A program made the position numbers and the translations under genes. From an uncultured bacterium (GTDB taxonomy: Bacteria > Hydrothermota > 32-111), in contig CBDUZN010000002.1 of assembly GCA_965371715.1 (NCBI GenBank), positions 1-45,377 on the forward strand: a DNA stretch of 45,377 nt, written 5' to 3'. Below are positions 3,900 to 40,039 of the stretch, piece after piece (the first letter of the stretch is position 1; every line of letters starts with the position of its first letter). The notes under the pieces are model-generated. The model worked only from the letters and a program-made list of their open reading frames with translations. It was not told the DNA's origin and did not search any database.

Positions 3900-4941
3900 A
3901 TTTTCTGATAAATTGAATGCATTTAATACCCATATAGCTTGATTTGATTTCCCATGTTGGATCATTTACTATAAGAGTAATAATTGCATAATTTGTTTTC
4001 TTACCTTCATAAATACCCATAAACCAATTATAGAATCCTCCGGGATTTTTCCCATAAAGAGATCCAGTTTTTGCATATGTTTTTTCTGTAATTTGGGGGA
4101 ATTTTATAAACATTTTTTTTGATGTACCTTTCTTAGTTGTTTCAGAAAGTGCTTTCATTACAAAATTATTTGTTGTTTTGCTTATAATCTTCTTTTGTAT
4201 TTTTCTATCTGTCTTATTTATAAATGGAACAATCAAATTTCCATCATTGCCAATTGTCATTGCAATCATAAGTGCGTGAAAAGGTGTTGTATAGGAATAA
4301 TCAAGTCCGGATGTTAATTTTATTAATTCATTATTTCCTTTGATCGAATCAATATATCCCAATTGCATTCCGCTAATTGTTGAATTATTAAATAGGAATT
4401 TTTCAGCATATTCTACAACTGATTCTTTCCCAAGCACCATTCCAATCTCTGCAAAAACAGGATTATTTGACTTTGCCGCTCCCTGAGTAATTGTTGAATA
4501 TATTGCTTTCTGTTTTTTTCTGATACTTAAATAATCCTTTAATTCCGAATACATTGAACCATAGTATTTTATTCTTGAATCAGGTTTATATATGCCTTTT
4601 CCAATTGCGGCAGATAATGGTATGATCTTAAAAAGAGAGGAACATACAAGATTTGAATTAATATATTCTCCTTTAAAATATCCCCTCTTTGAATATTCGG
4701 CAATACCAATAATTTGTCCCGATCTGCAATCAGCAATAATTGCCACTCCATAGGGAACCTTGTGGTTTTTTAGAACAAGTTCCATATCTTCACACATTTC
4801 CTTAATTAGTCCCGTATTCTCATAATTCCCTGTTCTTATTACATAAGCATATTCAGCAGGGGTATCATTTTGAGGTAACATTTCGCTGCATCCGGTTAAT
4901 AATAATATTAATAATATAAATGCAAAAATACTTGTTTTCAT
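3886..4941 (-). CDS. penicillin-binding-protein transpeptidase-like lipoprotein
   Basis: Lipobox LLLTGC. Ordered serine-acyltransferase motifs SxxK (SLFK), SxN (SNN) and KTG (KTGS) occur at typical spacing. Confidence 0.65.
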   Translation of the reverse strand: MKTSIFAFILLILLLTGCSEMLPQNDTPAEYAYVIRTGNYENTGLIKEMCEDMELVLKNHKVPYGVAIIADCRSGQIIGIAEYSKRGYFKGEYINSNLVCSSLFKIIPLSAAIGKGIYKPDSRIKYYGSMYSELKDYLSIRKKQKAIYSTITQGAAKSNNPVFAEIGMVLGKESVVEYAEKFLFNNSTISGMQLGYIDSIKGNNELIKLTSGLDYSYTTPFHALMIAMTIGNDGNLIVPFINKTDRKIQKKIISKTTNNFVMKALSETTKKGTSKKMFIKFPQITEKTYAKTGSLYGKNPGGFYNWFMGIYEGKKTNYAIITLIVNDPTWEIKSSYMGIKCIQFIRKYADN

Positions 4942-22260: not shown

Positions 22261-22881
22261 TCAATGATCCCTTATAATATCTTTTACTTTCATTAATCGA
22301 GTAAGATTGGAGCGTTCCATTTCAGCAAGTTTCATAACTATAAATTTAATAGTTTCTTCCAAATTAGGAATGAGCTTGTATTCCAATGCATTCACTCTTC
22401 TTCTTGTTTTATCAATTTCATCAGCTAACAATTGAACTGTTTTTTCTTTTTCTGCTAATATTAATAATGACTCAAAAAATTTATCAAATTTCATTAATGC
22501 AACATCCATTTCGCCTGAAGTATTTAAATATCCATAACAAATAATACTACCCTCTACTTCTCTCTTGAAAATTGGAACCTTTACTGACATTAGGTTTTTT
22601 TCTTCCACACTAACAGATACCTTTTTTTGTGGCAAAGAAAGTGCTTCATCCATTTCAAGAGGTTCCATTTCCGCTTTTGCCAAAGTGAATCCTCTTAGTA
22701 TTGATTGGAATTCTGATTCAATGGAAATACGCAAATCCTTCACTTCATTTATAAGCAGCATCATTTGTCTCATTAATTCATCTTGTTTGTCCCTTAATAG
22801 CTTATGTCCGCGTTTTGCTATTTTGATACGCTTCTTTAAACGAAGTAATTCCATTCTTGTTGCATTAACATTGAGTATCAT
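22261..22881 (-). CDS. atpD: V-type ATPase subunit D
   Basis: N-terminus NATRMELLRLKKRIKIAKRGHKLLRDKQDEL and a coiled-coil central stalk. Last gene of the ntp-like operon. Confidence 0.9.
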   Translation of the reverse strand: MILNVNATRMELLRLKKRIKIAKRGHKLLRDKQDELMRQMMLLINEVKDLRISIESEFQSILRGFTLAKAEMEPLEMDEALSLPQKKVSVSVEEKNLMSVKVPIFKREVEGSIICYGYLNTSGEMDVALMKFDKFFESLLILAEKEKTVQLLADEIDKTRRRVNALEYKLIPNLEETIKFIVMKLAEMERSNLTRLMKVKDIIRDH

Positions 22882-24287
22882 TATTTATCCTCTTTTTCAA
22901 CCTTTTCATTTTCTTTAATTTTTTCTAAATATTTATCAAGATACTCATCTCTTATTCTCTTTAATTCCTCTCTTGGAAAAACCGATAGTAATTTCCAGCT
23001 TAAATCAAGCGTCTGCTCAATTGTTCTGTTTTCATATTCTCCCTGAGAAATATATTCCTCTTCAAATGCACTTGCGAATTGCAAATATATCTTATCCATA
23101 TCCGATAATGCCGCTTCACCAAGAATCACTGCTAATTCCTCAACCTCTTTGCCCCTTGCATAAGAAGCATAAAGTTGATTAAATATATCAGCATGATCTT
23201 CTCTTGTTTTTCCCTTTCCAATACCCTTATCTTTTAATCTTGATAATGATGGAAGTACATCTGTTGGAGGCGATATTTTCTTTTTATGAAGGGACCTTGA
23301 AAGAATAATTTGTCCTTCGGTAATATAGCCCGTCAAATCAGGGATAGGATGCGTTTTGTCATCTTCCGGCATTGTAAGGATAGGGATCATTGTTATTGAT
23401 CCACTTTTCCCTTTTATTTTTCCTGCTCTTTCATAAATTGTTGATAAATCAGTATAAAGATATCCGGGATATCCTCTTCTTCCCGGTATCTCTTTTCTTG
23501 CTGCCGAGACCTCTCTTAATGCCTCACAATAATTTGTAATATCTGTTAAAATCACAAGAACATGCATATCTTTTTCAAAAGCAAGATATTCTGCACAGGT
23601 TAAGGCAACCCTTGGTGTAGCAATTCTTTCAATTGCAGGATCATTAGCAAGATTTAAGAATAATACAGCTCTGTTAATTGCTCCTGTTTTCGTAAAATCA
23701 TTTATAAAATATTCTGATTCTTCAAATGTAATGCCCATTGCTCCAAAAACAACAGCAAATGATTCTTCCGATTTCCGTACAACTGCCTGTCTGGCAATCT
23801 GCGCAGCCATTTTATTATGCGGAAGACCTGAGCCGGAAAATATAGGTAGTTTTTGTCCTCTTACAAGCGTATTTAATCCATCAATTGATGAAATTCCTGT
23901 TTGTATAAATTCATCGGGATAATTCCTTGCATAAGGATTTATAGGAGCGCCATTTATATCCTTACTCTTTTCAGCAATGATTCTATCCTTATCGGTTTTG
24001 GGTTTGCCAAGTCCGGTAAAAACCTTTCCAAGTATATCTTTGGATAACTCCAGTTCAATTCCTCGTCCCAGAAATCTCACTTTTGTTTTCTCAACATCAA
24101 TACCTGTTGTTCCCTCAAAAACCTGCACCAATGCCTTATCATTATTAACTTCAAGCACCTTTCCTGTTCTTTTTGTATTATCTGCAAGGCGAATCTCAAC
24201 CAGTTCTTCATACTTTACACCTTCAACACCTTCAACTAACATAAGGGGTCCCGAAATGTTTATAATGCTGTTATATTCTTTAAGCAT
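22881..24287 (-). CDS. atpB: V-type ATPase subunit B
   Basis: Non-catalytic B-subunit blocks seen: [43 protein letters not shown]. Confidence 0.95.
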
Positions 24288-24289
24288 AA

Positions 24290-26059
24290 TTACTCCTGAT
24301 TTGATTCTTGTGTCAATTTTTTGAATTCTTCATCAATATCCTTAATTACATTATCAATAAGTTCAATGTTTTTATTATCAGTATATTTCATTCTTGCTAT
24401 TTTATCTCTCACCTTCATCTTTTCTATATCATCAATTTTTACATTTTTCTGCAAATGTTCCTTTGCAGTAGTAAATAGATAGTCAATAACACACATCATT
24501 TTATACTGCTTTTCAATTGGAGAATATGTGTCAACTTCATGAAATGCATTCTGATGGAGAAAATCCTCTCTATACATTTTTGCAGTTAATAGAATCAATC
24601 TATCTGTTCCTGAAAGAGAGTCCACTCCAACAAGACGAACAATTTCTTCAAGTTCGGATTCTTCTTCTAATATTCTCATTGCCTTTGATTGTAAATCAAA
24701 GAAATCCTCAGCAACCAACTTTTTAACACCTTCTCTTATATTGTCAATATATAATGAATATGAATTCAACCAGGATATTGCAGGGAAATGTCTTCTATAG
24801 GCAAGACTTGCTTCAAGAGACCAAAATACCTTAACAACCCTAAGTGTTGCCTGAACAACCGGATCGGAGAAATCACCGCCCGGAGGAGATACTGCTCCTA
24901 TTACAGATAATGCTCCCTCTTTTTCTTTATCAGAAGAAAGTGTTATCACTCTACCTGCTCTTTCATAAAAAGAAGCTATTCTTGCACCAAGATAGGCAGG
25001 ATAACCCTCTTCTCCCGGCATTTCTTCAAGTCGTCCAGATATTTCTCTCATTGCTTCTGCCCATCTTGATGTACTGTCAGCCATAAGAGCAACCGAATAA
25101 CCCATATCTCTAAAATATTCAGCAATGGTTATACCCGTATAAACAGATGCTTCCCTTGCTGCAACAGGCATATTAGATGTATTTGCAATAAGTACTGTTT
25201 TTTTCATAAGTGGTTCGCCCGACTTTGGGTCAATAAGTTCAGGAAACTCCAATAACACATCTGTCATTTCGTTTCCTCTTTCACCGCAACCAATATAAAC
25301 AACTATTTCTGCATCAGCCCATTTTGCTAATTGATGCTGAATAACTGTTTTTCCTGAACCAAATGGTCCTGGTACACAGGCAGTTCCACCTTTTGCAATT
25401 GGGAAAAACATATCAATTACTCGTTGACCTGTAATTAACGGCATTTCAGGTGGTAATTTTTTTGCATATGGTCTTGGCTTTCTTACAGGCCATTTCTGCA
25501 TCATCTGTATTTTATAGTCCTTCTTTTCTGATTTTACTATTGCAATGGTTTCTTCAATTGTAAATTTACCTTTTTCAATGGATTTGATCTTCCCTGATAT
25601 TCCGGGAGGTATCATTATATAATGCTTAACAAGCTTTGTTTCCTGTACAAAACCTATTGTATCTCCTTCCTGTATATTGTCGCCTTTTTTAACACTTGGA
25701 TTGAAGTTCCATTTCTTTTCCATATTTAATGGAGAAACACTTACACCTCTTGGAATAAAATCGCCAGCCTTTTCATATATCAAATCAAGGGGTCTTTGAA
25801 CTCCATCATAAATGGATTCAATAAGTCCGGGACCCAAGATTACCGAAAGGGGCTCTCCTGATAGATACACAGGTTCTCCCACTCCTATACCGGCTGTTTC
25901 TTCATATACCTGAATATATGCTCTATCTCCATCCAATTCTATTATTTCACCCATTAATTTATGTTTTGAAACATAAACAACATCGTACATTTTAGCGCCG
26001 GTCATATTGTCTGCAATTACGAGTGGTCCTGCAACCTTTGTGATTTTTCCCGTTTTCAT
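24290..26059 (-). CDS. atpA: V-type ATPase catalytic subunit A
   Basis: Walker [30 protein letters not shown] and the non-homologous-region insert typical of A subunits. Confidence 0.97.
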
Positions 26060-26076
26060 CGCTTCTCCTATTTTTT

Positions 26077-26394
26077 TTAAGATATTATATCTGCGCCAAC
26101 AGCTTTAATGATTGCCTGCCTTAATCTATTGATTGCATAATCATTTTTTTCCCCAATACCGGGAATAACCATTATTGACGGTAACATTTTTTCAGAATAT
26201 TCTCTTATTGTTGAATCAATTTTTGATGCAAAATTATCAGTAATAAAAATAATTCCATAATTCTTTTTAGCAATTTTTTTCAATGTATCTCTTGCCTGTT
26301 CTGCATTTATTACAGGGAAAATATCTGCTCCTACTGCCTTAAAGATTAACATTACATCATTTTCGCCAATTGCACCGATTTTTACATTTTTCAT
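26077..26394 (-). CDS. atpF: V-type ATPase subunit F
   Basis: 105 aa with [22 protein letters not shown]...IIFITDNFA. Positioned between C and A. Confidence 0.85.
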
Positions 26395-27407
26395 AAAGCA
26401 AGTATCCTATTTCTTATTCTTTCTTTATCAATTGAATATGTGGCTCCTATTAATGCAATATTAAGGTTTTTCATTTCAATGCGTTTTCTCAAAACAAAAT
26501 AAACCACTTTTTCAAGATTAGCAACAGAGTATTTTACATGTTCAAAGAAATTCAGAACAAACTCGTCCTCATTTCTTTCAAATGCCGAGAATGTATCTTT
26601 CTGCTGGAACAAATGTGTTCCCTGAAAGATCATTTTCGAATACGGTGTTTTTTCAATACTTTGAATAAAATAATCCGTTGATTCCTTTTCATATTTTATT
26701 AATTCCTTTTTTTCAAGGAATCCATTTTCATAAAGAAATACGGTATATGGAATTTTGTCTTTAAGTAATTTCACTCTATATATATTTTTTATATTATACA
26801 TATCTATTGTATGTTTTAAAAGATCAACAAGCATTTCGCTGCCCATTGAAGAAAAATGTTCATAGATTTTATTAAGATAAAATCTTTCAAGTAATAGTTC
26901 CCTTGTTCTCTGATTTTTCTCAATACCTATTGTATATTTTGCATAATTAAGAATTTCTTGTGTCTCCTTATCAATCTTATCATATTTCCCGCTTTCATAT
27001 GCCTCTTTAAGATCCTGATAGGAATATGAAAAAGCATGAAAAATATTTGAAAAATCCTTTTCTGTTATGGATGCCTTCATTATAATTTTAATATTCTGCA
27101 TATCCAGTCTAAGCAAGTAGAATTCGGTAAGCGGTTCATGTTTCTTTTTTAAAAAACTTCTCAGTAGATTCATAATGTTTGAATGCTCTTCTGTCATTGC
27201 ACTTTCTAAATTACCTGTTTTTTCAATTATTGGAATATATTTGGAATAATGTGTTTCCTGTAAAATCTTCAAAAAATCCTTCGCTGAATCTGCATTTATT
27301 AATCGTTCCCATCTCTGCTTATCAATAAATTCTTTTTCCCTTTCTGTTAAAAGGGCACATATATAAAGATAATATGAATCATCATTTATATCATAATCCT
27401 TGAACAA
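26391..27407 (-). CDS. atpC: V-type ATPase subunit C (d)
   Basis: 338-aa all-helical protein in the canonical slot between E and F. Confidence 0.8.
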   Translation of the reverse strand: MFKDYDINDDSYYLYICALLTEREKEFIDKQRWERLINADSAKDFLKILQETHYSKYIPIIEKTGNLESAMTEEHSNIMNLLRSFLKKKHEPLTEFYLLRLDMQNIKIIMKASITEKDFSNIFHAFSYSYQDLKEAYESGKYDKIDKETQEILNYAKYTIGIEKNQRTRELLLERFYLNKIYEHFSSMGSEMLVDLLKHTIDMYNIKNIYRVKLLKDKIPYTVFLYENGFLEKKELIKYEKESTDYFIQSIEKTPYSKMIFQGTHLFQQKDTFSAFERNEDEFVLNFFEHVKYSVANLEKVVYFVLRKRIEMKNLNIALIGATYSIDKERIRNRILAL

Positions 27408-27995
27408 TCATTCCTCCTTCGGGAATAGAATAGATGCCAATTCAATTCTGAATTCATCAACTGATGATGTAAAATAATCATAGGGAGATAAATTATAACT
27501 TGCCTTGCCGGATACTATTTTAACACCAAACTCAAAGTCCGCCTTTTCTTTGCTTTCTTTAATAGCAGTTTTCATTTTTTTTGCTATAGATACAATATTT
27601 TTTGCATTTATATTTTTATCCCTTTTTCCTATTAGTACTTCACCCTTTTTTATTTCACTCTTTTTAAGCATTTTTTCAATAAATGATTTATACTTTTTTG
27701 CTTCCGGCTTAAGAAGTTGCCCTGATGCCTTTTCAATTATTGAATCAATAATATTGATTTTGTATTCAAGGATTTTTTGATTCATTTCTGAATACACTTT
27801 AAGTAGTTCTGTTTCATAAATATCTTTTTTTCTTATAATTGCAATCTTTTTTGTATCTTTTATGCTGTCATCTTTTTCTTTTTTTGCCTCATTTATTAAT
27901 ATATCTGCCTTTTCTTTTGCTGCATTAATGATGTTTTCTTTTTCAATGTCAGCATCATTTAATATCTTATTAGCTACATTGCTGATATGGGACAT
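27408..27995 (-). CDS. atpE: V-type ATPase subunit E
   Basis: 195 aa with a long charged N-terminal helix and a globular C-terminus, in the canonical position. Confidence 0.8.
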   Translation of the reverse strand: MSHISNVANKILNDADIEKENIINAAKEKADILINEAKKEKDDSIKDTKKIAIIRKKDIYETELLKVYSEMNQKILEYKINIIDSIIEKASGQLLKPEAKKYKSFIEKMLKKSEIKKGEVLIGKRDKNINAKNIVSIAKKMKTAIKESKEKADFEFGVKIVSGKASYNLSPYDYFTSSVDEFRIELASILFPKEE

Positions 27996-28005
27996 ACTGC
28001 TTTCC

Positions 28006-30532
<2,527 letters not shown>

Positions 30533-30533
<1 letters not shown>

Positions 30534-30859
30534 TATTCATAAACCTTTTTTATAATATAATTCAATGCTTCCTTTTCTTTTTTAGCAGAAAATTCTTTTA
30601 CTTTCTTTATTTTACTATCATATTCTTTCTCTATTTTCCCTCTTTTCTTTTCTGCATCTGCTATTGCACTATTTTCTGCTTTGCTTAAAATTACCTTTGT
30701 TTCATTCTCTATTGATTTTCTAATCTCTTTTGCCTTCACATTGGCATTATCAATTATTTTATCAGAGTCCTTCCTGGCTGATGCTATTATTCCTTTTGCT
30801 TTTTCTTCTGCTTCCTTTATCTCATTAATAATATTTTTTACCACAGCCATCTCCTTCAT
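30533..30859 (-). CDS. V-type ATPase small peripheral-stalk subunit (G/H-like, NtpF-like position)
   Basis: 108-aa single charged helix (A/E/K-rich). First gene of the operon, overlapping atpI by 1 nt. Confidence 0.7.
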
Positions 30860-31255: not shown

Positions 31256-32029
31256 CTATCCAATTGTTCTTACAAAATCAGGAAACATTTCAATCATTTT
31301 TGAATCTTTTGGTTTTATAAGAAATATTTCTATTTCTTTTTGAAGTTTCTTTAAATCAATGCTTTTACATTTTTCTAATAATATTGATTTCAAGGCATTA
31401 TTATTTTCAATTCCATTTGTAAGTTTAAGATATCCATATTCAGGTTGTGTAAATGAAAACATATAAATAATATCATAAATATCTCTTGCTTTTGTGCGTT
31501 TTCTATTTAGAAAAGCAGAAATCTTTTGTGAAAGCAGTATATTTTGAGGAACTACATATATTCTTGTTAAAATGGAAAATCTATTTAAAAGATAATCAGT
31601 GGCAATATATGTATATGGCTGCCGTTCAGCATCAAGCTGTATCAATATTTTTTCCTTATCATAGCCAGACAAATTGTAATCAAACAAGAGTTTCGGGAAT
31701 CTTATATAACATCTAAAAGCATTTTTTGATACAACTTTTATTTCAATAACAAATCCTTCCAATTCAAGTTCATCTCGAATTATTTCTGTTAATTGTTCAA
31801 ATTCATTAAAGGAAATATCTCTACTATCAAAATCAATATCTTCGGAAAATCTTTGAGAATTATGAATTACTCGGATTGCTGTTCCACCCATAAAAACAAT
31901 CCTGTTTGAAAATTTACTATTAAATATTATATCAAGAATCTTGTATTGAAGATATTCTCTGAGAAGTTGCTTTTTATAAACATGCATATTTTCCGGATAA
32001 AACTTTTCTATTTCCTTAATACTAAGCAT
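31256..32029 (-). CDS. abiEii: AbiEii/AbiGii-family nucleotidyltransferase toxin (type IV TA)
   Basis: MGGTAIRVIHNSQRFSEDIDFD nucleotidyltransferase motif. Overlaps the upstream antitoxin gene by 8 nt. Confidence 0.85.
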   Translation of the reverse strand: MLSIKEIEKFYPENMHVYKKQLLREYLQYKILDIIFNSKFSNRIVFMGGTAIRVIHNSQRFSEDIDFDSRDISFNEFEQLTEIIRDELELEGFVIEIKVVSKNAFRCYIRFPKLLFDYNLSGYDKEKILIQLDAERQPYTYIATDYLLNRFSILTRIYVVPQNILLSQKISAFLNRKRTKARDIYDIIYMFSFTQPEYGYLKLTNGIENNNALKSILLEKCKSIDLKKLQKEIEIFLIKPKDSKMIEMFPDFVRTIG

Positions 32030-32639
32030 TATTCATCACCTCCATTAAAGAATGAACACATCTACTTACTCTTTTGTTATTAATCATATTTATAAAACTA
32101 TTTAATGTATCCATTTTTATGAGTTCATAAAATACTTCAGGATTTATCCGTATTCCAACAATATCTTGCTTTGTCTTAATATCAGAATTAAAATAAAAAT
32201 AATCCACCAATGCCTTTTCAGCAGAAGCAATTTTCCAGCAAATTCCTTCAGTATGCTCTATATTATACCCAAAAAAGTATTTCTTTAAAATCCTTCTATA
32301 ATTAAAATTACCTATTGGCGTATTAAATGTTGCTGTTTTTCTCGTTGATACAGATAAAATCATATAAGGTTGTTCAGGAATAAGACCATAATAACTTAAA
32401 GCACTTTCAAGCGAAACATATGAATGTCTATATATTTTATTAGCAATTTCATAAAGCATATTTTCATTTAATTCGGACTCGGTAAAAATATAATGCCCAT
32501 TAATGATTTTTGTTATATAACCCTTTTCTTGCCATTCATAAAGTCGCCTTGCATCAAAATTCGGTTCAATCTTACGAATTTCAATAAGATTAAATACTGC
32601 TATTCTTTTCAATGCTTTTCTAAACTCAATATACTTCAT
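32022..32639 (-). CDS. abiEi: AbiEi-family antitoxin / transcriptional regulator (type IV TA)
   Basis: N-terminal wHTH (LYEWQEKGYITKIINGHYIF) and C-terminal SLESALSYYGLIPEQP block, paired with abiEii. Confidence 0.8.
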   Translation of the reverse strand: MKYIEFRKALKRIAVFNLIEIRKIEPNFDARRLYEWQEKGYITKIINGHYIFTESELNENMLYEIANKIYRHSYVSLESALSYYGLIPEQPYMILSVSTRKTATFNTPIGNFNYRRILKKYFFGYNIEHTEGICWKIASAEKALVDYFYFNSDIKTKQDIVGIRINPEVFYELIKMDTLNSFINMINNKRVSRCVHSLMEVMNNA

Positions 32640-32698: not shown

Positions 32699-32787
32699 CC
32701 CCACCCTGAGCATAGCCGAAGGGTCAGCGTACCAATTGCCAGTTACTTCTCCAAATTTTTCTACTTTTTCAAGCACCGTCCCCTGAA
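32699..32787. repeat. mosaic GC-rich repeat (CCCTGAGC..GCCGAAGGGT + AGCGTACC..CCAGTTACTTCT + TTCTCCAAATTTTTCTACTTTTTCAAGCACCGTCCC)
   Basis: The last module is near-identical to 42551..42586 and supplies the final codons and stop of the 32769 gene. Confidence 0.8.
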
Positions 32788-34250
32788 ATTTTATTAGTTT
32801 TTATTATATTTTTCATTTTCTCTGTTAGGTAATAACCACCTACTTGTGCCGCTTCATTACTGAAGTATATTAATTTTACTTCTTTTAATTGCTTTATATA
32901 TCTCTCTACGCTGCTAATAGGTGTTTTAGTTATTGCAACATAATCAGGAACTCTTTTACCTTCATTATTAGCAATAGCATTTAAAAGAGCAGTCAGTTTT
33001 TCTTTTCTTTCCTTAGTCGCTCCCTCAATTGCTCCCTCAATTGCTCCCTCAATTGCTCCCTCAATTGAAATACCATGTTTTCCTATAATAGTTATTTTGG
33101 GGAAACTTAGTATAATAGTACCAAAAGTACCATTCCATTTTGGTTCAGGATACCCTTTATCTATGCAATCATCAATCATCTTAATTGTACCACGACCAAT
33201 CTTTTCAATCCATGCTCTGAGAAAACAAATATGAGCAATATCTGGGTTTCTTGGAAAAGAAAGATGATTTCTCTTTAAATCAAAGAATTTTATTTCAGAT
33301 GGTAATTTTCCATAATTTACAATTTCCAAATAGTCAGGATGAAAAGAAAGAACAATACTCCCAGAAGCATTGGAGTAGTCGCTATGTATCAGTGCGTTTA
33401 AAAGACCTTCACGCAAGGCAATTCTGGGAAATCCTTTATCAATTCTTTTCCAGCTGGAATCTTTGAACTGACTGCTTACACCAATATTTACATCAAAAAA
33501 CTGCGTGATATTATCAATGTTTTTAAATATATTATCATCAAATATTTTATCATAAACATATTCATCTCCACCTTTACTGTCTTTAAAAACAATCAATCTA
33601 ACTCGTGCTTGAGGTAAAAATCTAGTGGGTTCTTTTGCAAAAAGAATAACTGCAGCATTTGTAAAATTTCCATTTTGATAAAGACCATAATGGGTTAGAA
33701 ATTCACTAATCTCATTTTTTGAGAAAATTTTTCCTCTACCCGCTTTTTCAATATCTTTCAATGTATCTAATATAACCGATTCGTCTAAATCTTTAAGTTC
33801 TACACCTATTGCATCTTGCCGTTCCCAAAGGGTTTCAGTTTTTTGTCGTTTTTCAATGAGTTCTGATATTTGATTAGGAGTTGCTTTGGTTGTATTGGTA
33901 ATATTTCGATAGTAAATACTACTATTAAATGTATAAGGGAACCTTGATCCTCTCCATACTTTTATGAGAAAAACCTTCATCTCTTTATAGGTTTCTATTG
34001 AAATTGATATCGGTGCATTAGGAGAAATTAGTTTAACAAGGAAGTCCTCTAATTCTGATTTATGCTTTTCAGTATTTGAAATCCCAACTATTTTATTTTT
34101 CTTTACTCCAATTAAAATTTGACCACCATTGGTGTTCAAAAAGCCGCAAATGGTTTTTCCAATATCTTCTTTACTAACGATTCCCTTAAATTCAAGTTGT
34201 TCACTCTCACCCTTTTTTAAAATGTTTTCTATGAGTTGTTTATTTTTCAT
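32769..34250 (-). CDS. AlbA_2 (Schlafen-like) + HATPase_c_4 (RecG-C-like) + C-terminal wHTH protein, paralogue 1
   Basis: N-terminus ESEQLEFKG...ICGFLNTNGGQILIGV (AlbA_2), ALREGLLNALIHSDYS (HATPase_c_4-like), a (GAIE)4 linker and a C-terminal wHTH-like tail. Overlaps the upstream DUF4062 gene by 11 nt. Confidence 0.8.
   Translation of the reverse strand: MKNKQLIENILKKGESEQLEFKGIVSKEDIGKTICGFLNTNGGQILIGVKKNKIVGISNTEKHKSELEDFLVKLISPNAPISISIETYKEMKVFLIKVWRGSRFPYTFNSSIYYRNITNTTKATPNQISELIEKRQKTETLWERQDAIGVELKDLDESVILDTLKDIEKAGRGKIFSKNEISEFLTHYGLYQNGNFTNAAVILFAKEPTRFLPQARVRLIVFKDSKGGDEYVYDKIFDDNIFKNIDNITQFFDVNIGVSSQFKDSSWKRIDKGFPRIALREGLLNALIHSDYSNASGSIVLSFHPDYLEIVNYGKLPSEIKFFDLKRNHLSFPRNPDIAHICFLRAWIEKIGRGTIKMIDDCIDKGYPEPKWNGTFGTIILSFPKITIIGKHGISIEGAIEGAIEGAIEGATKERKEKLTALLNAIANNEGKRVPDYVAITKTPISSVERYIKQLKEVKLIYFSNEAAQVGGYYLTEKMKNIIKTNKISGDGA
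33019..33066. repeat. perfect 12-bp x4 tandem repeat (GCTCCCTCAATT) inside a CDS
   Basis: Encodes (GAIE)4 in the linker between the HATPase_c_4-like region and the wHTH of paralogue 1. Confidence 0.95.
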
Positions 34251-34794
34251 TTTTTTTCCTTTGAATTTCTTCTAATTCTTTTTCTCTCTGTTTAATATTC
34301 TTGTACTGAGTGTTTATAAAAGTGTAGATTTCATCTGTTTTAAAAAATGATTGAGCCCAATTCGATTTTATGTCATTATACATATCAATTACCTTTACGC
34401 TATCTAATACACTTGTTGGTTTTATCTTAAAACTCAATTTTCGTTTGCCATTTTTATCAAACATAAATTGGTTGAGAAGTTCTCTGGCAAAGGGAACATA
34501 GCGATGTGCAATAAAACACCGTGGTTTATCTAATTCCTCCGCTTTCAAGAACTCTTTATGTGTTATACCTGAACCATATCTTGGGAATAATATACCAAGA
34601 AATAGATCACAATCTTCCACCGCTTTTAAGCAGGCTTCTTCAGATGTATATCCTATAGGTACATACACACTCCCTTTCTTAGACATAATAACTTCGTAAC
34701 CAAACCCATCAAGTATGTTGTAAATGGCATCTAAATCACTTTCTGAACCATAAACTGTTGAGGATACCATTATTTTGAGTTTTTTCTTATTCAT
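34240..34794 (-). CDS. DUF4062 domain protein (nucleoside 2-deoxyribosyltransferase/TIR-like fold family)
   Basis: KIMVSSTVYGSESDLDAIYNIL...CLKAVEDCDLFLGILFPRYGSG..ITHKEFLKAEELDKPRCFI fits the DUF4062 pattern as I recall it. ATG 34794 is preferred because the TTG at 34821 abuts the -10 box. Confidence 0.65.
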   Translation of the reverse strand: MNKKKLKIMVSSTVYGSESDLDAIYNILDGFGYEVIMSKKGSVYVPIGYTSEEACLKAVEDCDLFLGILFPRYGSGITHKEFLKAEELDKPRCFIAHRYVPFARELLNQFMFDKNGKRKLSFKIKPTSVLDSVKVIDMYNDIKSNWAQSFFKTDEIYTFINTQYKNIKQREKELEEIQRKKNEK

Positions 34795-34829
34795 TTTTAT
34801 CCATTTTGATTGTTTTAACAATTAAGAAT

Positions 34830-34857
34830 ATAATATCATTAATGTTGATTTTGTCAA
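34830..34857 (-). promoter_or_regulatory. sigma70-type promoter, TTGACA-16-TATTAT (DUF4062-AlbA_2 operon)
   Basis: -35 at 34857..34852 and -10 at 34835..34830 on the minus strand. Confidence 0.5.
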
Positions 34858-34910: not shown

Positions 34911-35040
34911 ATCCTCCGTCCCCTCCAGATTTCCCAATATTTTCCCATTCTCCTGAGGCAGATTTTTCCACTTTTCCAACCAGCGTACCAGATACCAGTT
35001 ACTTCTGCAAAGCCGAAGGGTCATCCACGCATTTCCAAAT
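34911..35040. repeat. mosaic GC-rich repeat
   Basis: CATTCTCCTGAGGCAGATTTTTCCACTTTTCCAACCA (34946-) is near-identical to 38591-. It is followed by CAGCGTACCAGATACCAGTTACTTCT (compare 36164-) and GCCGAAGGGT. Confidence 0.8.
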
Positions 35041-35042
35041 TC

Positions 35043-35201
35043 CTATAAATTTAAAATATCTACTGATAATCGTGGTAAATTCCTAACAAAAAAATTGATT
35101 GCTGTTCCACCTTTTATTGCCCAATCATCTATTTCTTCAATATATGGCAACAATTTTAGAAGTAATCTCACTTGATTAGAATATTTATCATTATATATCA
35201 T
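35043..35201 (-). pseudogene. truncated AbiEii-type nucleotidyltransferase toxin (52-codon N-terminal stub)
   Basis: ATG at 35201 overlaps the antitoxin stop (ATGA). It encodes MIYNDKYSNQVRLLLKLLPYIEEIDDWAIKGGTAINFFVRNLPRLSVDILNL*. The frame stops inside the catalytic S-V-D-I-D motif and repeat DNA follows. Confidence 0.7.
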
Positions 35202-35938
35202 ATTACAATATTATATTTTTTTATGTATCTTCCATTTTTCACTATTTGCCTTTTCCCATATCCCAGAGTTATTTTTTGTCGGTTTATTTTATTATTCCAT
35301 TTGTAATTAAATTTATCTGCAAAATATAAAAAAACTCTTTTTGTTTTCACTGACCTACAATTTTCCAATAAATCCTGGATAATTTTAGGACGAAGCATTG
35401 TTAAATTTTCAAAAACTTGTTCTATTTCTTTGGAAGTATATTTAATAATAATATCATTTATCATCTCCATTATCGCTTGTTCAGGAACTGCAACTTGTAT
35501 ATCATAATTTTTATAATTTATAATCTTCAGATAATTTTTACTAAAAATATTTTTATATGATATTTGAATATCAATTTTCCATTTATATTTTAAAAACCAT
35601 TTTGGAACTGTATCATTCTTCACATACATAACAACCGTACTTATATCTTTTTCAACAAAATGAGTTATCCCAAACATATTTAATGCTGTTTTAGATCCAA
35701 GATGTAAATTCTTATTTAATTGAAAATGTATAGCATTAATAGCTGAATACCAATATACTCTATCATTATACAATTTATAAGCACCTTTTCCTATACTACT
35801 AATGATATGACTTTTCTTGTATTTATTTAATAATACGGCACTGTAATTATTATTATTCAAATAACTTGCTGTTTTTATTTCTCCCTTTTGCCATTCTAAC
35901 AAAAGTGTGTTTATTTTTTTCCTTACATGTTTACTCAT
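35198..35938 (-). CDS. AbiEi-like (AbiEi_3-type) antitoxin / regulator, orphan
   Basis: LLEWQKGEIKTASYL...SSIGKGAYKLY wHTH-like N-terminus and a GSKTALNMFGITHFV block. Start at ATG 35938, 7 nt after the TAGAAT -10. Confidence 0.65.
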   Translation of the reverse strand: MSKHVRKKINTLLLEWQKGEIKTASYLNNNNYSAVLLNKYKKSHIISSIGKGAYKLYNDRVYWYSAINAIHFQLNKNLHLGSKTALNMFGITHFVEKDISTVVMYVKNDTVPKWFLKYKWKIDIQISYKNIFSKNYLKIINYKNYDIQVAVPEQAIMEMINDIIIKYTSKEIEQVFENLTMLRPKIIQDLLENCRSVKTKRVFLYFADKFNYKWNNKINRQKITLGYGKRQIVKNGRYIKKYNIVI

Positions 35939-35945
35939 GGTTAAC

Positions 35946-35973
35946 ATTCTATCAATAATGTAAACCATGTCAA
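35946..35973 (-). promoter_or_regulatory. sigma70-type promoter, TTGACA-16-TAGAAT, leaderless geometry
   Basis: -35 at 35973..35968 and -10 at 35951..35946. The ATG at 35938 starts exactly 7 nt after the -10. Confidence 0.45.
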
Positions 35974-36013: not shown

Positions 36014-36197
36014 TGTCTTTGCGAGCGAAGCTATAGGGTTGAAAATTCGCCCCACCTAGGCGGGTCTAAGGACGTGGCGAACAATCTCCTTATCGGCTAT
36101 TCATTCTTTTCTTCCCCGCCCTGAGCAAGCATTGCGAGCCGAAGGGTCTCCACTATCGTACTCAGCATACCAGATACCAGTTACCTCTTCGGATTCC
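36014..36197. repeat. mosaic GC-rich repeat
   Basis: GTCTTTGCGAGCGAAG...GCGAACAATCTCC (compare 21601), CCGCCCTGAGCAAGCATTGCGAGCCGAAGGGT (compare 42424) and CAGCATACCAGATACCAGTTACCTCTTCGG (compare 34981). Confidence 0.8.
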
Positions 36198-36941: not shown

Positions 36942-38300
36942 CTATTGACCATCAACTATTGACTTCTTCTTGCCCCGTCCCCTTATGTACCAAACATTAT
37001 TCCCTCCACCCATTTTGATAATTTTATCTTGCCTAATTAATTTATTTAAATCATCAATTGCGGTATCTCTATGAACAGAAAATTGTTTCTCTATATCTTT
37101 TGATTTAATTCTACCATTTTCCTTAAGTTTACTTATTATCCACTTTATTCTTTTCTCCACAGATTTATTTCGGATTTGTTTCGGATTTGTTTCGGATTTG
37201 TTTCGGATTTGTCTATAAAAAATTACATTAAAAAAGGATTCAACTTCAAATTCAATTTTCAAATTATTATCTTTCATTAATTTTTTTATTCTTTTTATGC
37301 CAGATCCTGCTTTTTCAACTAATCCAAGTCTATGAACAAGATCTACAAGTATTGGATTCCTTTGTACACTTCTTTTGCCTAATTCATTTTTAGGAAATAA
37401 TAATTTCCCGGGGTTTATAATTTCTACTCTTTTGGGATCTATATTTATTTGAATGTTTGCAGGGGAAAAATAATCTCTATGTATCATCGCATTTATTATT
37501 GCTTCTCTTAATGCACTCTTTGGCAATTCTAATTTAGTTTTATGTTTTAATTCATCTTTTATTATTATTGCAGTGTTCAATTTTGAAATAAGATATTTAT
37601 AAACATTGTTTAAATTTGATATGAAATCTTCTTCAAATTCCTTTGAATCAATTATTTCCGTCTGTTCTTTATCACTATATAGAAAACATGAGATTATTGC
37701 ATTAGGCAAATAATGTTTTATATTTCTTGTAAAAAACAAGATACCCGAATTGTTTAATTTATTGTTTGTTAGTAAGTTTAGATTATTTAAGATATGCTTC
37801 TTTGATAGATTCTTATCCAACCCTGTTTCTTTTTTAAAATTCTCAAATACATCTATTGAAAAATCCATTTCTTTAAAAACTTTTGTTTGTTTTTCAAAGG
37901 ATATTAAATTTTCTCTTTGAAATAAATTCCTTATTTCATCTCTGTTTAATTGTTGAGAATTTGCTCCATATCTTAAATAAAAATGCCCGTTTATCATATA
38001 AGGTTTACTTTTACCTTCTGGAACATATATAATTACTAAATTATTTATTTGCTCTATTTGAATATTAAAAGAAGGATTCATATTTCTCGCAATATCCTGG
38101 ATTTTTGATCGCACAGAATTTGTTAATTTAAATCCTTTTACTCTATTTGTTTTATCATTTACGCCAATAACTATTTTCCCACCAGAAGAGTTTGCAAAAG
38201 CACAAATTCCTTTACCAATAGAACTATTGATAGACTCTTTTAATTCAATAGTATAACCTTCACCTGTTTTTATTATATCCAATAACTCATTATATTTCAT
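36942..38300 (-). CDS. AlbA_2 (Schlafen-like) + HATPase_c_4 + wHTH protein, paralogue 2
   Basis: TIELKES...ICAFANSSGGKIVIGV, ALREAIINAMIHRDYF and a C-terminal wHTH. Start set at ATG 38300 (MKYNELL, aligning with paralogue 1), which forms an ATGA overlap with the upstream 87-aa ORF. Confidence 0.8.
   Translation of the reverse strand: MKYNELLDIIKTGEGYTIELKESINSSIGKGICAFANSSGGKIVIGVNDKTNRVKGFKLTNSVRSKIQDIARNMNPSFNIQIEQINNLVIIYVPEGKSKPYMINGHFYLRYGANSQQLNRDEIRNLFQRENLISFEKQTKVFKEMDFSIDVFENFKKETGLDKNLSKKHILNNLNLLTNNKLNNSGILFFTRNIKHYLPNAIISCFLYSDKEQTEIIDSKEFEEDFISNLNNVYKYLISKLNTAIIIKDELKHKTKLELPKSALREAIINAMIHRDYFSPANIQINIDPKRVEIINPGKLLFPKNELGKRSVQRNPILVDLVHRLGLVEKAGSGIKRIKKLMKDNNLKIEFEVESFFNVIFYRQIRNKSETNPKQIRNKSVEKRIKWIISKLKENGRIKSKDIEKQFSVHRDTAIDDLNKLIRQDKIIKMGGGNNVWYIRGRGKKKSIVDGQ
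37163..37214. repeat. 11-bp x about 4.7 tandem repeat (ATTTGTTTCGG) inside a CDS
   Basis: One imperfect unit, three perfect units and one partial unit. It encodes IRNKSETNPKQIRNKS, with the protein period equal to 3 DNA units. Confidence 0.95.
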
Positions 38301-38536
38301 TGTATTTTGCTTTTCCATGCATTAATCCTACCATTGCCAGCTTGGTAAAATAATGAGGTTGTTTCATTTACTTTTATTAGATCAAAAAGTTGTTCAGTTT
38401 GTTTTTCTTTTAGTCCAGAATGTTTACTGAAATCAGCAATTCCATAATGATTTATGTATTCCTCAATTTCATTTATGAGGTTTTCATTAATATTTTTACT
38501 ATAATGATAATTCTCAAATTTCTTAATTTTATTCAT
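38297..38536 (-). CDS. hypothetical small protein (79 aa from ATG; 87 aa from TTG at 38560)
   Basis: The ORF ends in an ATGA overlap with paralogue 2. No recognisable domain. Confidence 0.45.
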   Translation of the reverse strand: MNKIKKFENYHYSKNINENLINEIEEYINHYGIADFSKHSGLKEKQTEQLFDLIKVNETTSLFYQAGNGRINAWKSKIQ

Positions 38537-38589
38537 ATAATATATTTTATATGAATTCAATAAATAATCAATATAAAAGATTAATTATT

Positions 38590-38636
38590 CCATTCTCCTG
38601 AGGCGGATTTTTCCACTTTTTCAACCATCGTCCCCG
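38590..38636. repeat. mosaic repeat module
   Basis: CCATTCTCCTGAGGCGGATTTTTCCACTTTTTCAACCATCGTCCCCG is near-identical to 34945-34990. It supplies the last codons and stop of the 38621 gene. Confidence 0.8.
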
Positions 38637-40039
38637 ATTCTTTCTCTTTTTATTTGTTTTCCTTTTTCAGTAATAATGTATTTTTGCTTACTGCTTCGTG
38701 GTTTTTCAGGAATAGTCATTTTTAAAATTCCATTTTCAATAAGTGGATAAATTTTTCTCTTATAATTTAAGTAAACATCTGATAAATTTAAATGTTTTAA
38801 TATTTCACTTTTGGAACGAGGAATATAACAAAATTTTAAAATAGAAATAACTTGCTCACTAACTTGCTCACTAACTTGCTCACTAACTTGCTCACTAACT
38901 CCGACTTTTTTTCTTTTGAAAATTACAACAAAATTGCCTGCTATTTCTTTATATGTTGGAATAGGAAGTTTGAATGTTTGCATTAATTGATTCATCTTTT
39001 CTATTCCACTCCCCCATCTTTCAATATATCCGCTTAAAAATAGAATCTCAGCAATAGTAGGATTTCTTAGTACTGAAATATGTTTTTTTAAAAGATCACT
39101 GATTTTAATATTTAACGGTAATCCTCCTGGAGACCATATTTCTACTCTATCATCAAATATCATTATATCAATATGACTTGGGGTTCTATAATCCCTATGA
39201 GCTACTGCATTTGCCACTGCTTCTCTAATAGCAAGAATAGGTAATTCATATTGTTCTTCTCTTCTACCAGTTTGAGAATTAATCTGGGCAAATTTACGAA
39301 TATTTCTTACTATAAATTTTAGAGATAAGTCAATCTGATTAAAAACATTATCCTTGATTTCAATATGATCAATTATTTTACCTGTTTTATCTACACCCTC
39401 AAAAAAAGCACATTTAATAATAGTATCTGTAAAGTATTTTTGAATTTCTTTACCAAAAGTCATTACCCCAGCAAAATTTAATTTACTTTGTGATAGCAAT
39501 CCAAGTTTACTTAAAATTACTCTATTATTTTCTTTGGTATCAATAGGTAAATTCCTTTCTTCCTTTGCTTTTTCAAGAAACCATTTCACTGTTTTTGCAT
39601 CTATTGCATTATTGTATTCATTATTTATTGTTTTATCAAATCTATATGCAGGATTTTCTCTCTCATAAAGGTATTTTTCTATCTCATATCGGGAAAGATA
39701 TGCATTACTGGTACCTAATCGTTTATATGCTTTTCCTTTATAAAAATATGGCTTTTCAGGACTGTTTTTTATTTCTACAATTAATATATCTTTGTTCTTG
39801 ATTGAATCTATATAAACATTTGGATAAATTCTGGGTTCAATTAAAGATAATATAGTTGTTGAAACTCTTTTAATTGTATTATCACTAAATTTTTGACCAA
39901 GAATATCCCCATTATCGGATATTCCAAAATAGATGGTTCCTATACCACAATTTGCAAATGCACAAAGATCTATTAATGCTTGTTTTAATTCTGCTGTTGA
40001 TCTTTTAAATTCTACTTTTTCCGATTCCTTGAATTTCAT
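38621..40039 (-). CDS. AlbA_2 (Schlafen-like) + HATPase_c_4 + wHTH protein, paralogue 3
   Basis: ESEKVEFKRS...LCAFANCGIGTIYFGI, AIREAVANAVAHRDYR, a (SEQV)4 linker and a C-terminal wHTH-like tail. Confidence 0.8.
   Translation of the reverse strand: MKFKESEKVEFKRSTAELKQALIDLCAFANCGIGTIYFGISDNGDILGQKFSDNTIKRVSTTILSLIEPRIYPNVYIDSIKNKDILIVEIKNSPEKPYFYKGKAYKRLGTSNAYLSRYEIEKYLYERENPAYRFDKTINNEYNNAIDAKTVKWFLEKAKEERNLPIDTKENNRVILSKLGLLSQSKLNFAGVMTFGKEIQKYFTDTIIKCAFFEGVDKTGKIIDHIEIKDNVFNQIDLSLKFIVRNIRKFAQINSQTGRREEQYELPILAIREAVANAVAHRDYRTPSHIDIMIFDDRVEIWSPGGLPLNIKISDLLKKHISVLRNPTIAEILFLSGYIERWGSGIEKMNQLMQTFKLPIPTYKEIAGNFVVIFKRKKVGVSEQVSEQVSEQVSEQVISILKFCYIPRSKSEILKHLNLSDVYLNYKRKIYPLIENGILKMTIPEKPRSSKQKYIITEKGKQIKRERIGDDG
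38851..38898. repeat. perfect 12-bp x4 tandem repeat (CTTGCTCACTAA) inside a CDS
   Basis: Encodes (SEQV)4 at the same linker position as the repeats in paralogues 1 and 2. Confidence 0.95.

Follow-up and report, generated by a model that had tools for sequence, protein, structure and literature searches.

A stand-alone DUF4062 (NIR) protein near-obligately coupled to a Schlafen-GHKL-winged-helix protein: a candidate two-gene abortive-infection module

Contig CBDUZN010000002.1 of an uncultured bacterium (GenBank assembly GCA_965371715.1; GTDB lineage Bacteria; Hydrothermota; 32-111), analyzed here over positions 1 to 45,377 (the window, 45,377 nucleotides in all), carries on its minus strand a small gene for a DUF4062 protein (A) followed by a larger gene for a Schlafen-type protein (B), which raises the question of whether the two genes form a unit and what such a unit might do. 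An earlier note on this DNA had described a DUF4062 protein of 184-193 aa whose gene overlaps by 11 nt that of a 493-aa protein, and the coordinates of the open reading frames (ORFs) agree with that description: both ORFs are intact and share positions 34240-34250. The longer form of A would begin at an alternative TTG at 34821 (ORF 34240..34821, 193 aa, 9 residues longer), and A homologues start where the ATG of A lies. We find that A and B are a near-obligately linked, translationally coupled unit which has spread horizontally through bacteria and archaea. The pair very likely represents an unnamed anti-phage system assembled from two defense modules already known, and it is best described as a new architecture combining them and not as a new kind of system.

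The linkage was established by two censuses starting from opposite ends. In the first, one genome per species was scanned with an alignment of A homologues, yielding 80 loci, and in 79 of these a B homologue lies directly downstream of A on the same strand, with the lone exception being cut by a contig end. The two genes overlap by 4 nt in 58 of these genome loci and by 8 nt in 13. The reciprocal census used only B motifs and yielded 80 metagenome loci. A was found directly upstream of B in 76 of them; three had no upstream room, and L082 alone lacks A despite room. The stand-alone state of A and its translational coupling to B, both claimed from the window, hold in about 155 further loci, cultured mesophiles included (Flavobacterium, Algoriphagus, Sphingomonas, and Flavisolibacter), and homologues of the two genes are adjacent almost without exception. 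The pairwise distances of A and of B are correlated (r = 0.73), and 78 of 79 loci have a partner nearer to B than to the unlinked paralogues in the window. The A-linked B proteins are a distinct subfamily, 25-28% identical to those unlinked paralogues and almost always preceded by A. Hosts in the census from A cover at least 14 phyla, with archaea among them, and include Bacteroidota, Thermotogota, Aegiribacteria, Neomarinimicrobiota, Delongbacteria, Spirochaetota, Desulfobacterota, Myxococcota, Clostridia, Alphaproteobacteria, Verrucomicrobiota, Planctomycetota, Latescibacterota, Sericytochromatia, and methanogenic archaea.

The A subfamily itself is small, with 182 matches at E <= 1e-10 among 1.84 billion cluster representatives. 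The best 150 of these matches are nearly all 64-270 aa long, the rest being a few tandem NIR-NIR proteins (NIR being the recent name of the DUF4062 effector domain) and one A-B fusion. The tandem proteins (P0262, P0269, P0276, and P0289), each with two A-like domains, are consistent with a need for A to pair, and the fusion (P0332) is a natural single chain of 640 aa containing DUF4062, AlbA_2, and HATPase_c_4. A pattern scan of IMG/VR with A motifs retrieved no relative and PHROGs holds no family for A, so that these two collections, searched for A, gave no sign of the pair being phage-borne. Two loci depart from the usual layout. In L082, a B-subfamily gene (3001-4494) without an A gene upstream lies behind a gene for a 921-aa repeat protein, and in L046 (6001-7838) a truncated A, of which 88 aa were matched, is followed after a 110-nt gap by a protein nearer to one of the unlinked window paralogues (B2).

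For protein A, Pfam reports DUF4062 (PF13271) at residues 7-85, which cover all 82 positions of the model (E 2.6e-13; 50.4 bits, with the gathering cutoff at 24.7). The AlphaFold2 model of A (predicted local distance difference test score, pLDDT, 89.9; predicted template modeling score, pTM, 0.86) has a five-strand alpha/beta domain and then a long C-terminal helix (167-183), i.e., a TIR-like domain with one helix and no AUX or sensor region. When this model was compared to solved structures with Foldseek, the best matches were nucleoside 2-deoxyribosyltransferases (NDTs; E about 1e-4), followed by the TIR domains of SPARTA, RUN1, RPP1, and SARM1, all with modest TM-scores of only 0.4-0.5; the deoxyribosyltransferase/TIR-like fold proposed earlier for A is thereby borne out. 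Across 81 homologues, the block CDLF.GI..PRYGSGITHKEF (C62-D-L-F-x-G...Y73-G-S-G-I-T-H-K-E81) is at least 95% conserved except for S75 (85-95%) and K80 (conserved, but below 85%), and S12, H97, W146, and Q163 outside the block also reach at least 95%. Alignment A1 shows no variation at Glu81, whose conservation across the 81 sequences is at least 95%; the residue lies in helix 77-87, after strand 64-69. TIR enzymes that consume nicotinamide adenine dinucleotide (NAD+), the TIR NADases, have their catalytic glutamate at this position, as do Eva01 of Evangelion (E87-Y88) and KpSwz of Swarozyc (E97). The ITHKEF of A also resembles the WVHKEI around E642 of SARM1.

DUF4062 was shown in 2026 to be a TIR-like NADase effector, named NIR, in Swarozyc, Evangelion, Vulcan, Vesta, and Avs2 (bioRxiv 10.64898/2026.05.01.722283; 10.64898/2026.06.25.731849; 10.64898/2026.09.04.749371). 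Depletion of NAD+ through the equivalent glutamate is reported for KpSwz, PsAvs2, Vulcan, VstA, and TEP1 and is inferred for Eva01, and human TEP1 has the same NADase activity as the DUF4062/NIR domains. Judged by position and motif, E81 of A would correspond to the "acidic-SYT / E-Y" catalytic region of these proteins (Eva01 E87-Y88, KpSwz E97, and PsAvs2 E108). As such, the Pfam match, the predicted fold, and the invariant E81 lead us to predict that A is a NADase, in line with the earlier view that NAD-type chemistry was plausible for it.

Protein B is composed of three parts. Pfam reports SLFN_AlbA_2 (PF04326) at residues 15-123 (E 2e-18) and HATPase_c_4 (PF13749) at residues 299-374 (E 1e-10), and the AlphaFold2 model (pLDDT 80, falling below 50 at residues 390-397) matches in Foldseek the full length of 3LMM, an uncharacterized Corynebacterium diphtheriae protein (E 9e-20). 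Taken in parts, the N-terminus matches SLFN14, SLFN13, and SLFN11, the center matches histidine-kinase GHKL domains, and the C-terminus matches winged helices of the MarR/SlyA type. All three domain calls made from the sequence (DUF4062, AlbA_2, and HATPase_c_4) therefore have support from Pfam hidden Markov models, and the winged helix-turn-helix (wHTH) assigned to the end of B agrees with the MarR-type fold matches there. Several sources label homologues of B as "ATP-dependent DNA helicase RecG", a label that we reject because there is no helicase domain in B, only AlbA_2, GHKL, and winged helix. Proteins of the B type do have a PHROG, phrog_12156, which is likewise mislabeled as "DNA helicase".

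The combination of AlbA_2 and GHKL found in B was described as a supradomain and named "Schlatpase" by Kuzmenko et al. 2026 (bioRxiv 10.64898/2026.05.29.728809), who counted 60,692 such proteins; in the literature we found the term only there. HisKinase (34%) and HisKinase-HTH (19.2%) are among the commonest layouts of prokaryotic Schlafen proteins. A profile search of the PDB aligned ESEQLEFK of B with the catalytic ESASIEFK of SLFN13 (5yd0), and the 2026 literature on bacterial Schlafen proteins gives Ex4(E/D)xK as the Schlafen nuclease motif. Of 69 family members, 62 have E15 and 62 have E20. At the third acidic nuclease position (51), 54 of the 69 carry D or E, and the window B has Lys (K51, GVKKNK) where the nearest relatives read GVKENE, in an alignment that is uncertain by about one residue at this position. 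The Schlafen class assigned to B in the earlier note has stood, but its description as a nucleic-acid-binding protein was too narrow, since the class is now seen as a tRNase effector and not only as a binder.

In the GHKL domain, all 69 sequences share E281, N285, H289, N312, G314, G352, and G354, and the E-x3-N of B (E281/N285) corresponds to E314/N318 of RzAgo, the SLFN-pAgo (a Schlafen-bearing prokaryotic Argonaute, pAgo) of Runella zeae, in which these two residues hold the ATP gamma-phosphate and Mg2+. ATP binding by RzAgo leads to tetramerization, which rebuilds the bilobed Schlafen nuclease and permits tRNA cleavage. Mean pairwise identity among A-linked B proteins is 0.51 in the GHKL domain, 0.42 in the Schlafen domain, 0.39 in the middle, and 0.25 in the linker and winged helix, and overall it is 0.50 for A versus 0.40 for B. 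With the winged-helix end the least conserved and A and the GHKL domain the most, this pattern is what would be expected of a specificity or sensor element at the C-terminus of B.

For the working of the pair, we propose a model to which we give an even chance of being right: a two-gene abortive-infection module of a NIR/DUF4062 NADase and a Schlatpase-wHTH protein, in which B would sense, oligomerize, and activate A. B would act as sensor and scaffold, its variable winged helix, possibly together with the Schlafen surface, detecting a phage cue that may be nucleic acid or protein. On binding ATP, B would oligomerize, and this assembly would cluster the bound A subunits and make their TIR-like active sites competent. 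A would then hydrolyze NAD+, releasing ADP-ribose along with nicotinamide, and the infected cell would stop growing. In most family members, the same assembly would also switch on the Schlafen tRNase, making a dual-effector system; lacking the third acidic residue of the triad, the B of the window may rely mainly on the NADase.

Each half of this model has precedents among known systems. Vesta (Le Mouellic et al. 2026; bioRxiv 10.64898/2026.09.04.749371) is a two-gene operon with the small NIR protein first, like A-B, and its VstA has a catalytic glutamate, depletes NAD+ in an abortive-type response, and is strongly associated with VstB across genomes, as A is with B. In contrast to B, a Schlafen-GHKL-wHTH protein, VstB is an alkaline phosphatase, and it is dispensable for Vesta defense. 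No phosphatase partner was present at the A-B loci, in which AlbA_2 and HATPase_c_4 were found in 79/80 and 76/80 for the two censuses. VstA also has an extra C-terminal putative ligand-binding domain, whereas A has only its TIR-like domain and one helix. Swarozyc and Evangelion (bioRxiv 10.64898/2026.05.01.722283; 10.64898/2026.06.25.731849) use the same effector domain family as A, the helix after the TIR-like core of A resembles the "stalk" of KpSwz, and activation of both systems depends on higher-order assembly. They are, however, single proteins with a fused C-terminal AUX sensor, whereas A has no AUX in its 184 aa and its presumed sensor, B, is separate and translationally coupled, being fused to A only in the rare P0332.

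On the side of B, the Schlatpase or pSlfn-HisKinase-HTH proteins and SLFN-pAgo (bioRxiv 10.64898/2026.05.29.728809; Perez Taboada et al. 2026, PMC13056530; PMC12839542) have the same AlbA_2 and PF13749 GHKL supradomain as B, and B also has in common with this group the C-terminal HTH, the Ex4ExK motif, the E/N ATP site, and an association with type I restriction-modification (R-M) and bacteriophage exclusion (BREX) systems. SLFN-pAgo differs in having an Argonaute MID/PIWI core, while B is 493 aa long, ends in a winged helix, and has no Argonaute core; the pAgo model of PADLOC matches B only over its N-terminal positions 54-423 of 1121. SPARTA, SPARSA, and Thoeris resemble the pair in joining a TIR-type NAD+ consumer to a separate nucleic-acid-related partner, with oligomerization activating the NADase, and the TIR-APAZ of SPARTA is among the structural matches of A. 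They differ in that no Argonaute, APAZ, SIR2, SLOG, or Macro domain is found in or beside the pair.

Several points weigh against the model of B activating A. On the side of A, searching PDB sequences with the A profile turned up no more than a marginal match to TEP1 (E 0.19), which is the sole direct sequence link of A to a characterized protein, so that the connection to the characterized NIR enzymes is made through Pfam, the fold, and where the motif lies; likewise, E81 is equated with the published glutamates by its place in the fold and by motif likeness and not by a direct alignment. On the side of B, the window copy has Lys at the third catalytic acid and Ser290 in place of an Arg kept by at least 95% of the family (a change also present in two relatives), and it may be partly degenerate. 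Schlafen-HisKinase proteins in E. coli gave no defense against the phage panel used, and among Schlatpases ATP-dependent oligomerization and tRNA cleavage were shown for RzAgo only. Proteins of the B type are also widespread without an A partner, two in this window included, which implies that they function without A, that A is an add-on, and that B need not be the activator of A. Finally, stand-alone TIR proteins such as ThsB can be sensors, and the greater conservation of A does not decide which of the two proteins senses.

The setting of the pair in other genomes bears on what would trigger it. Flanking ORFs were clustered and the families named by Pfam for the 68 loci with usable flanks. 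Three recurrent flank families are HsdS, HsdM, and HsdR, and PglX/PglZ/BrxL, type ISP R-M genes, and pairs of an OLD-like ATPase with UvrD also occur; 29 of the 68 loci, as a raw count, have the pair inside or next to genes of type I R-M, BREX, type ISP R-M, or OLD/UvrD. The usual arrangements there are HsdR-HsdS-[A B]-HsdM and PglX-[A B]-PglZ-BrxL. When the four closest flanking genes are considered, on the strand of the pair, HsdS appears in 23 loci, HsdM in 18, and HsdR in 16, and three loci have the pair between PglX and PglZ. In the 22 loci with a same-strand Hsd or BREX gene as the immediate neighbor on a side, the median gap is -4 nt upstream and 19 nt downstream. Other flanks include AbiEi/AbiEii, pAgo, Zorya ZacA/ZacB, AriA, GmrSD, AbiL, dGTPase, and PADLOC candidate systems, along with housekeeping genes. 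The pair thus sits in defense islands, in many cases within an operon of type I R-M or BREX. As a separate observation, an OLD-like AAA_15 ATPase and UvrD-like helicase pair (Gabija-like) stands beside A-B in L069 and L076 (Methanoculleus/Methanomicrobiales) and in L072 (Sphingomonas), and in the archaeal L069 and L076 it sits together with HsdM and HsdS.

PrrC and RloC are anticodon nucleases embedded in type I R-M operons, PrrC in the EcoprrI hsd operon. The pair is like them where an abortive tRNA-targeting module lies between hsd genes, as in the many homologues arranged HsdS-[A B]-HsdM; it differs in that the protein families are unrelated and the window pair is not beside R-M genes. By analogy, an R-M or BREX complex might keep the pair inactive, with the pair firing when a phage anti-restriction protein disables that complex. 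We think this rather unlikely, although it concerns the trigger only and can coexist with activation of A by B. The HsdS, HsdM, and HsdR counts, the three PglX-PglZ loci, and the gaps of a few nucleotides fit such wiring, but insertion in R-M operons may merely reflect hitch-hiking in defense islands, and no R-M or BREX gene is adjacent in the window or in more than half of the loci. Schlafen-HisK-wHTH proteins have been called "backup suicidal effectors" in the BREX loci of at least 1017 taxa (NAR 2026, PMC12839542), and the fusion of a Schlatpase to HsdS is reported in the 2026 Schlafen literature; the window copy, on the other hand, has its own candidate promoter, and the module can evidently exist alone.

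An arrangement like that of Thoeris is, in our estimation, improbable. Here, A would be the sensor and would turn NAD+ into a nucleotide signal, which would bind B (for example in the GHKL pocket) and license the Schlafen tRNase, leaving B as the sole effector. A is a bare TIR-like domain, like ThsB, but it is more conserved than B (0.50 versus 0.40), the opposite of the fast-evolving ThsB sensors. Occupancy of the GHKL nucleotide pocket controls oligomerization and nuclease assembly in the homologous RzAgo module, yet that pocket shows high specificity for ATP. About 80-90% of partners keep the Schlafen catalytic motif, but without the third nuclease acid the B of the window could hardly be the sole effector here. 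Osinski et al. remark that DUF4062 operons may use mechanisms beyond plain NADase activity, whereas every DUF4062 enzyme characterized yields ADP-ribose and nicotinamide, with no signaling product reported. We regard as quite improbable the related proposal that NIR is not a bulk NAD+ destroyer but makes an NAD-derived nucleotide for a GHKL receptor that licenses the tRNase, possibly with R-M/BREX guardian wiring as well. It is very unlikely that the pair is non-immune, with B a wHTH regulator or nucleoid protein (e.g., of neighboring R-M genes) and A a nucleoside/nucleotide salvage enzyme of deoxyribosyltransferase type, or that it is a toxin-antitoxin-like addiction module: B does end in a MarR-like winged helix, the best Foldseek matches of A are true NDTs, a small gene overlapping a larger downstream one is a toxin-antitoxin-like layout, and about 30% of the Schlafen genes of prokaryotes are located away from known defense neighborhoods (2026 Schlafen literature), but A matches the DUF4062 model and not the NDT families, both domain families have experimentally shown anti-phage roles, the distribution over at least 14 phyla is patchy, horizontally transferred, and strongly embedded in defense islands, and the catalytic motifs of A and B are strongly constrained, which would not be expected of a protein serving just as antitoxin or repressor.

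The earlier note knew of no named defense system of this composition, and our searches agree. PADLOC 2.0.0 gave no match for A, which means that the pair is not cataloged there, and B matched only the models of Schlafen-bearing pAgo and SIR2-associated systems. The text of the DUF4062/NIR preprints (with one supplement, figures not covered) makes no mention of Schlafen, AlbA, or HATPase, and the text of the bacterial Schlafen defense papers and of the BREX survey (figures again not covered) makes no mention of DUF4062. Both halves of the pair were recognized as immune modules only in 2026, and both have human links: the DUF4062/NIR NADase is also found in TEP1, and Schlafen is the tRNase family of SLFN11, SLFN13, and SLFN14. 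As a fixed operon of the two, present in bacteria and archaea and built into restriction operons, the pair would be a natural system for studying how a sensor-less TIR-like NADase is switched on in trans and for asking whether NAD+ depletion and tRNA cleavage are used jointly. It may also explain why Schlafen-HisKinase proteins showed no phenotype when tried alone, since a partner may be required in some subfamilies.

In the window, the pair (Table 1) lies in an island of about 31.2 to 40 kb upstream of a V-type ATPase operon (22261-30859, minus strand), which borders it together with the gene for isoleucyl-tRNA synthetase (IleRS; 16220-18970, minus strand). This IleRS belongs to a 90%-identity cluster with a protein named from a candidate division WOR-3 bacterium, which points to a host of that division. 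The placement of the pair between an intact and a decayed AbiE module, as read earlier, is correct: AbiEi (32022-32639) and AbiEii (31256-32029) are intact downstream, and upstream are AbiEi_3 (35198-35968) and a 52-aa AbiEii stump (35043-35201). The island also contains an NlpC/P60 gene and two further genes for AlbA_2 + HATPase_c_4 + HTH proteins (36942-38318 and 38621-40039, both on the minus strand), 28% and 25% identical to B, respectively, and neither with a DUF4062 partner. Both, on which the earlier note made no remark, are at most 6 kb from the pair, so three paralogues of the family lie side by side in a 9-kb island.

The promoter that had been proposed for the pair is present as a candidate by consensus, with 11 of 12 consensus positions and an extended -10 TG. 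The site is intergenic, 36-63 nt upstream of the A start codon (ATG), and 4.2 kb of sequence contain only one other of this quality. Promoter-like hexamers are common in this AT-rich DNA of 30% G+C (31 observed against 23.5 +/- 4.5 in shuffles), which makes the site a good candidate and not proof. Its -10 box and leader are kept in part upstream of L001, the closest homologue. The other 11/12 site of the region (35946-35973, minus strand; TTGACA-16-TG-TAGAAT) overlaps the annotated ATG of AbiEi_3 at 35968, and the true start of AbiEi_3 is probably a Met downstream of 35968.

Mosaic repeats bracket the pair, as had been noticed. A 26-nt module has three copies (32725-32750, 34981-35006, and 36163-36188) where none is expected by chance, a 16-nt module has two (32710-32725 and 35007-35022), and the two modules stand in swapped order on either side of the pair. 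The flanking repeats are absent from all 160 related loci, which makes them a local feature of the island in this genome and not a part of the module, and Rfam gave no match over 30.5-41 kb, so that they correspond to no known RNA. The G+C-rich modules are restricted to gaps between island genes (32710-32750, 34981-35022, 36163-36188, and 38584-38638) and may mark cassette boundaries or recombination sites.

Table 1. Coordinates of the A-B pair, its domains and motifs, and associated repeats in the window.
Feature	Position	Strand	Description
Gene A	34240..34794	(-)	184 aa from ATG at 34794; stand-alone DUF4062/NIR TIR-like domain + C-terminal helix
Glu81 codon of A	34552..34554	(-)	Candidate catalytic glutamate; ITHKE81F, start of helix after strand 3
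Gene B	32769..34250	(-)	493 aa; Schlafen(AlbA_2)-GHKL ATPase ("Schlatpase") + C-terminal winged helix
Schlafen/AlbA_2 domain of B	33882..34208	(-)	aa 15-123; E15-x4-E20-x-K22 nuclease motif
GHKL (HATPase_c_4) domain of B	33096..33425	(-)	aa 276-385; E281/N285 N-box, N312-x-G314, G352-R-G354
Winged helix-turn-helix of B	32826..33014	(-)	About aa 413-475; MarR/SlyA-type Foldseek matches; most variable part of B
Candidate sigma-70-type promoter	34830..34857	(-)	TTGACA, 16-nt spacer, TG, TATTAT; consensus match only
Downstream flanking repeat	32710..32750	(-)	16-nt module GACCCTTCGGCTATGC + 26-nt module AGAAGTAACTGG..TGGTACGCTG
Upstream flanking repeat	34981..35022	(-)	Both modules, order reversed, abutting truncated AbiEii
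Linker repeat, B	33019..33067	(-)	Perfect 12-nt unit x 4.1, encodes (IEGA)n; Tandem Repeats Finder (TRF) 100% matches, score 98
Linker repeat, Schlatpase gene 36942-38318	37162-37212		11-nt unit x 4.6
Linker repeat, Schlatpase gene 38621-40039	38848-38900		12-nt unit x 4.4 (VSEQ)

Within 35007-35201, the AbiEii beside AbiEi_3 ends after 52 codons, nearly where a G+C-rich repeat block starts, and the remainder of this toxin gene may have been replaced by the A-B cassette or by the repeats. An 87-aa ORF (38297-38560, minus strand) that Pfam does not match shares 22 nt with the start of the Schlatpase gene 36942-38318 and may be a small partner gene or an artifact. All three Schlatpase genes of the window have, in the linker before the winged helix, a short tandem repeat that is close to perfect. 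Since 11 is not divisible by three, a change in the copy number of the 11-nt unit would frameshift the C-terminal HTH, and the linker repeat could be a phase-variation switch. The B homologue of L082 likewise has a repetitive linker.

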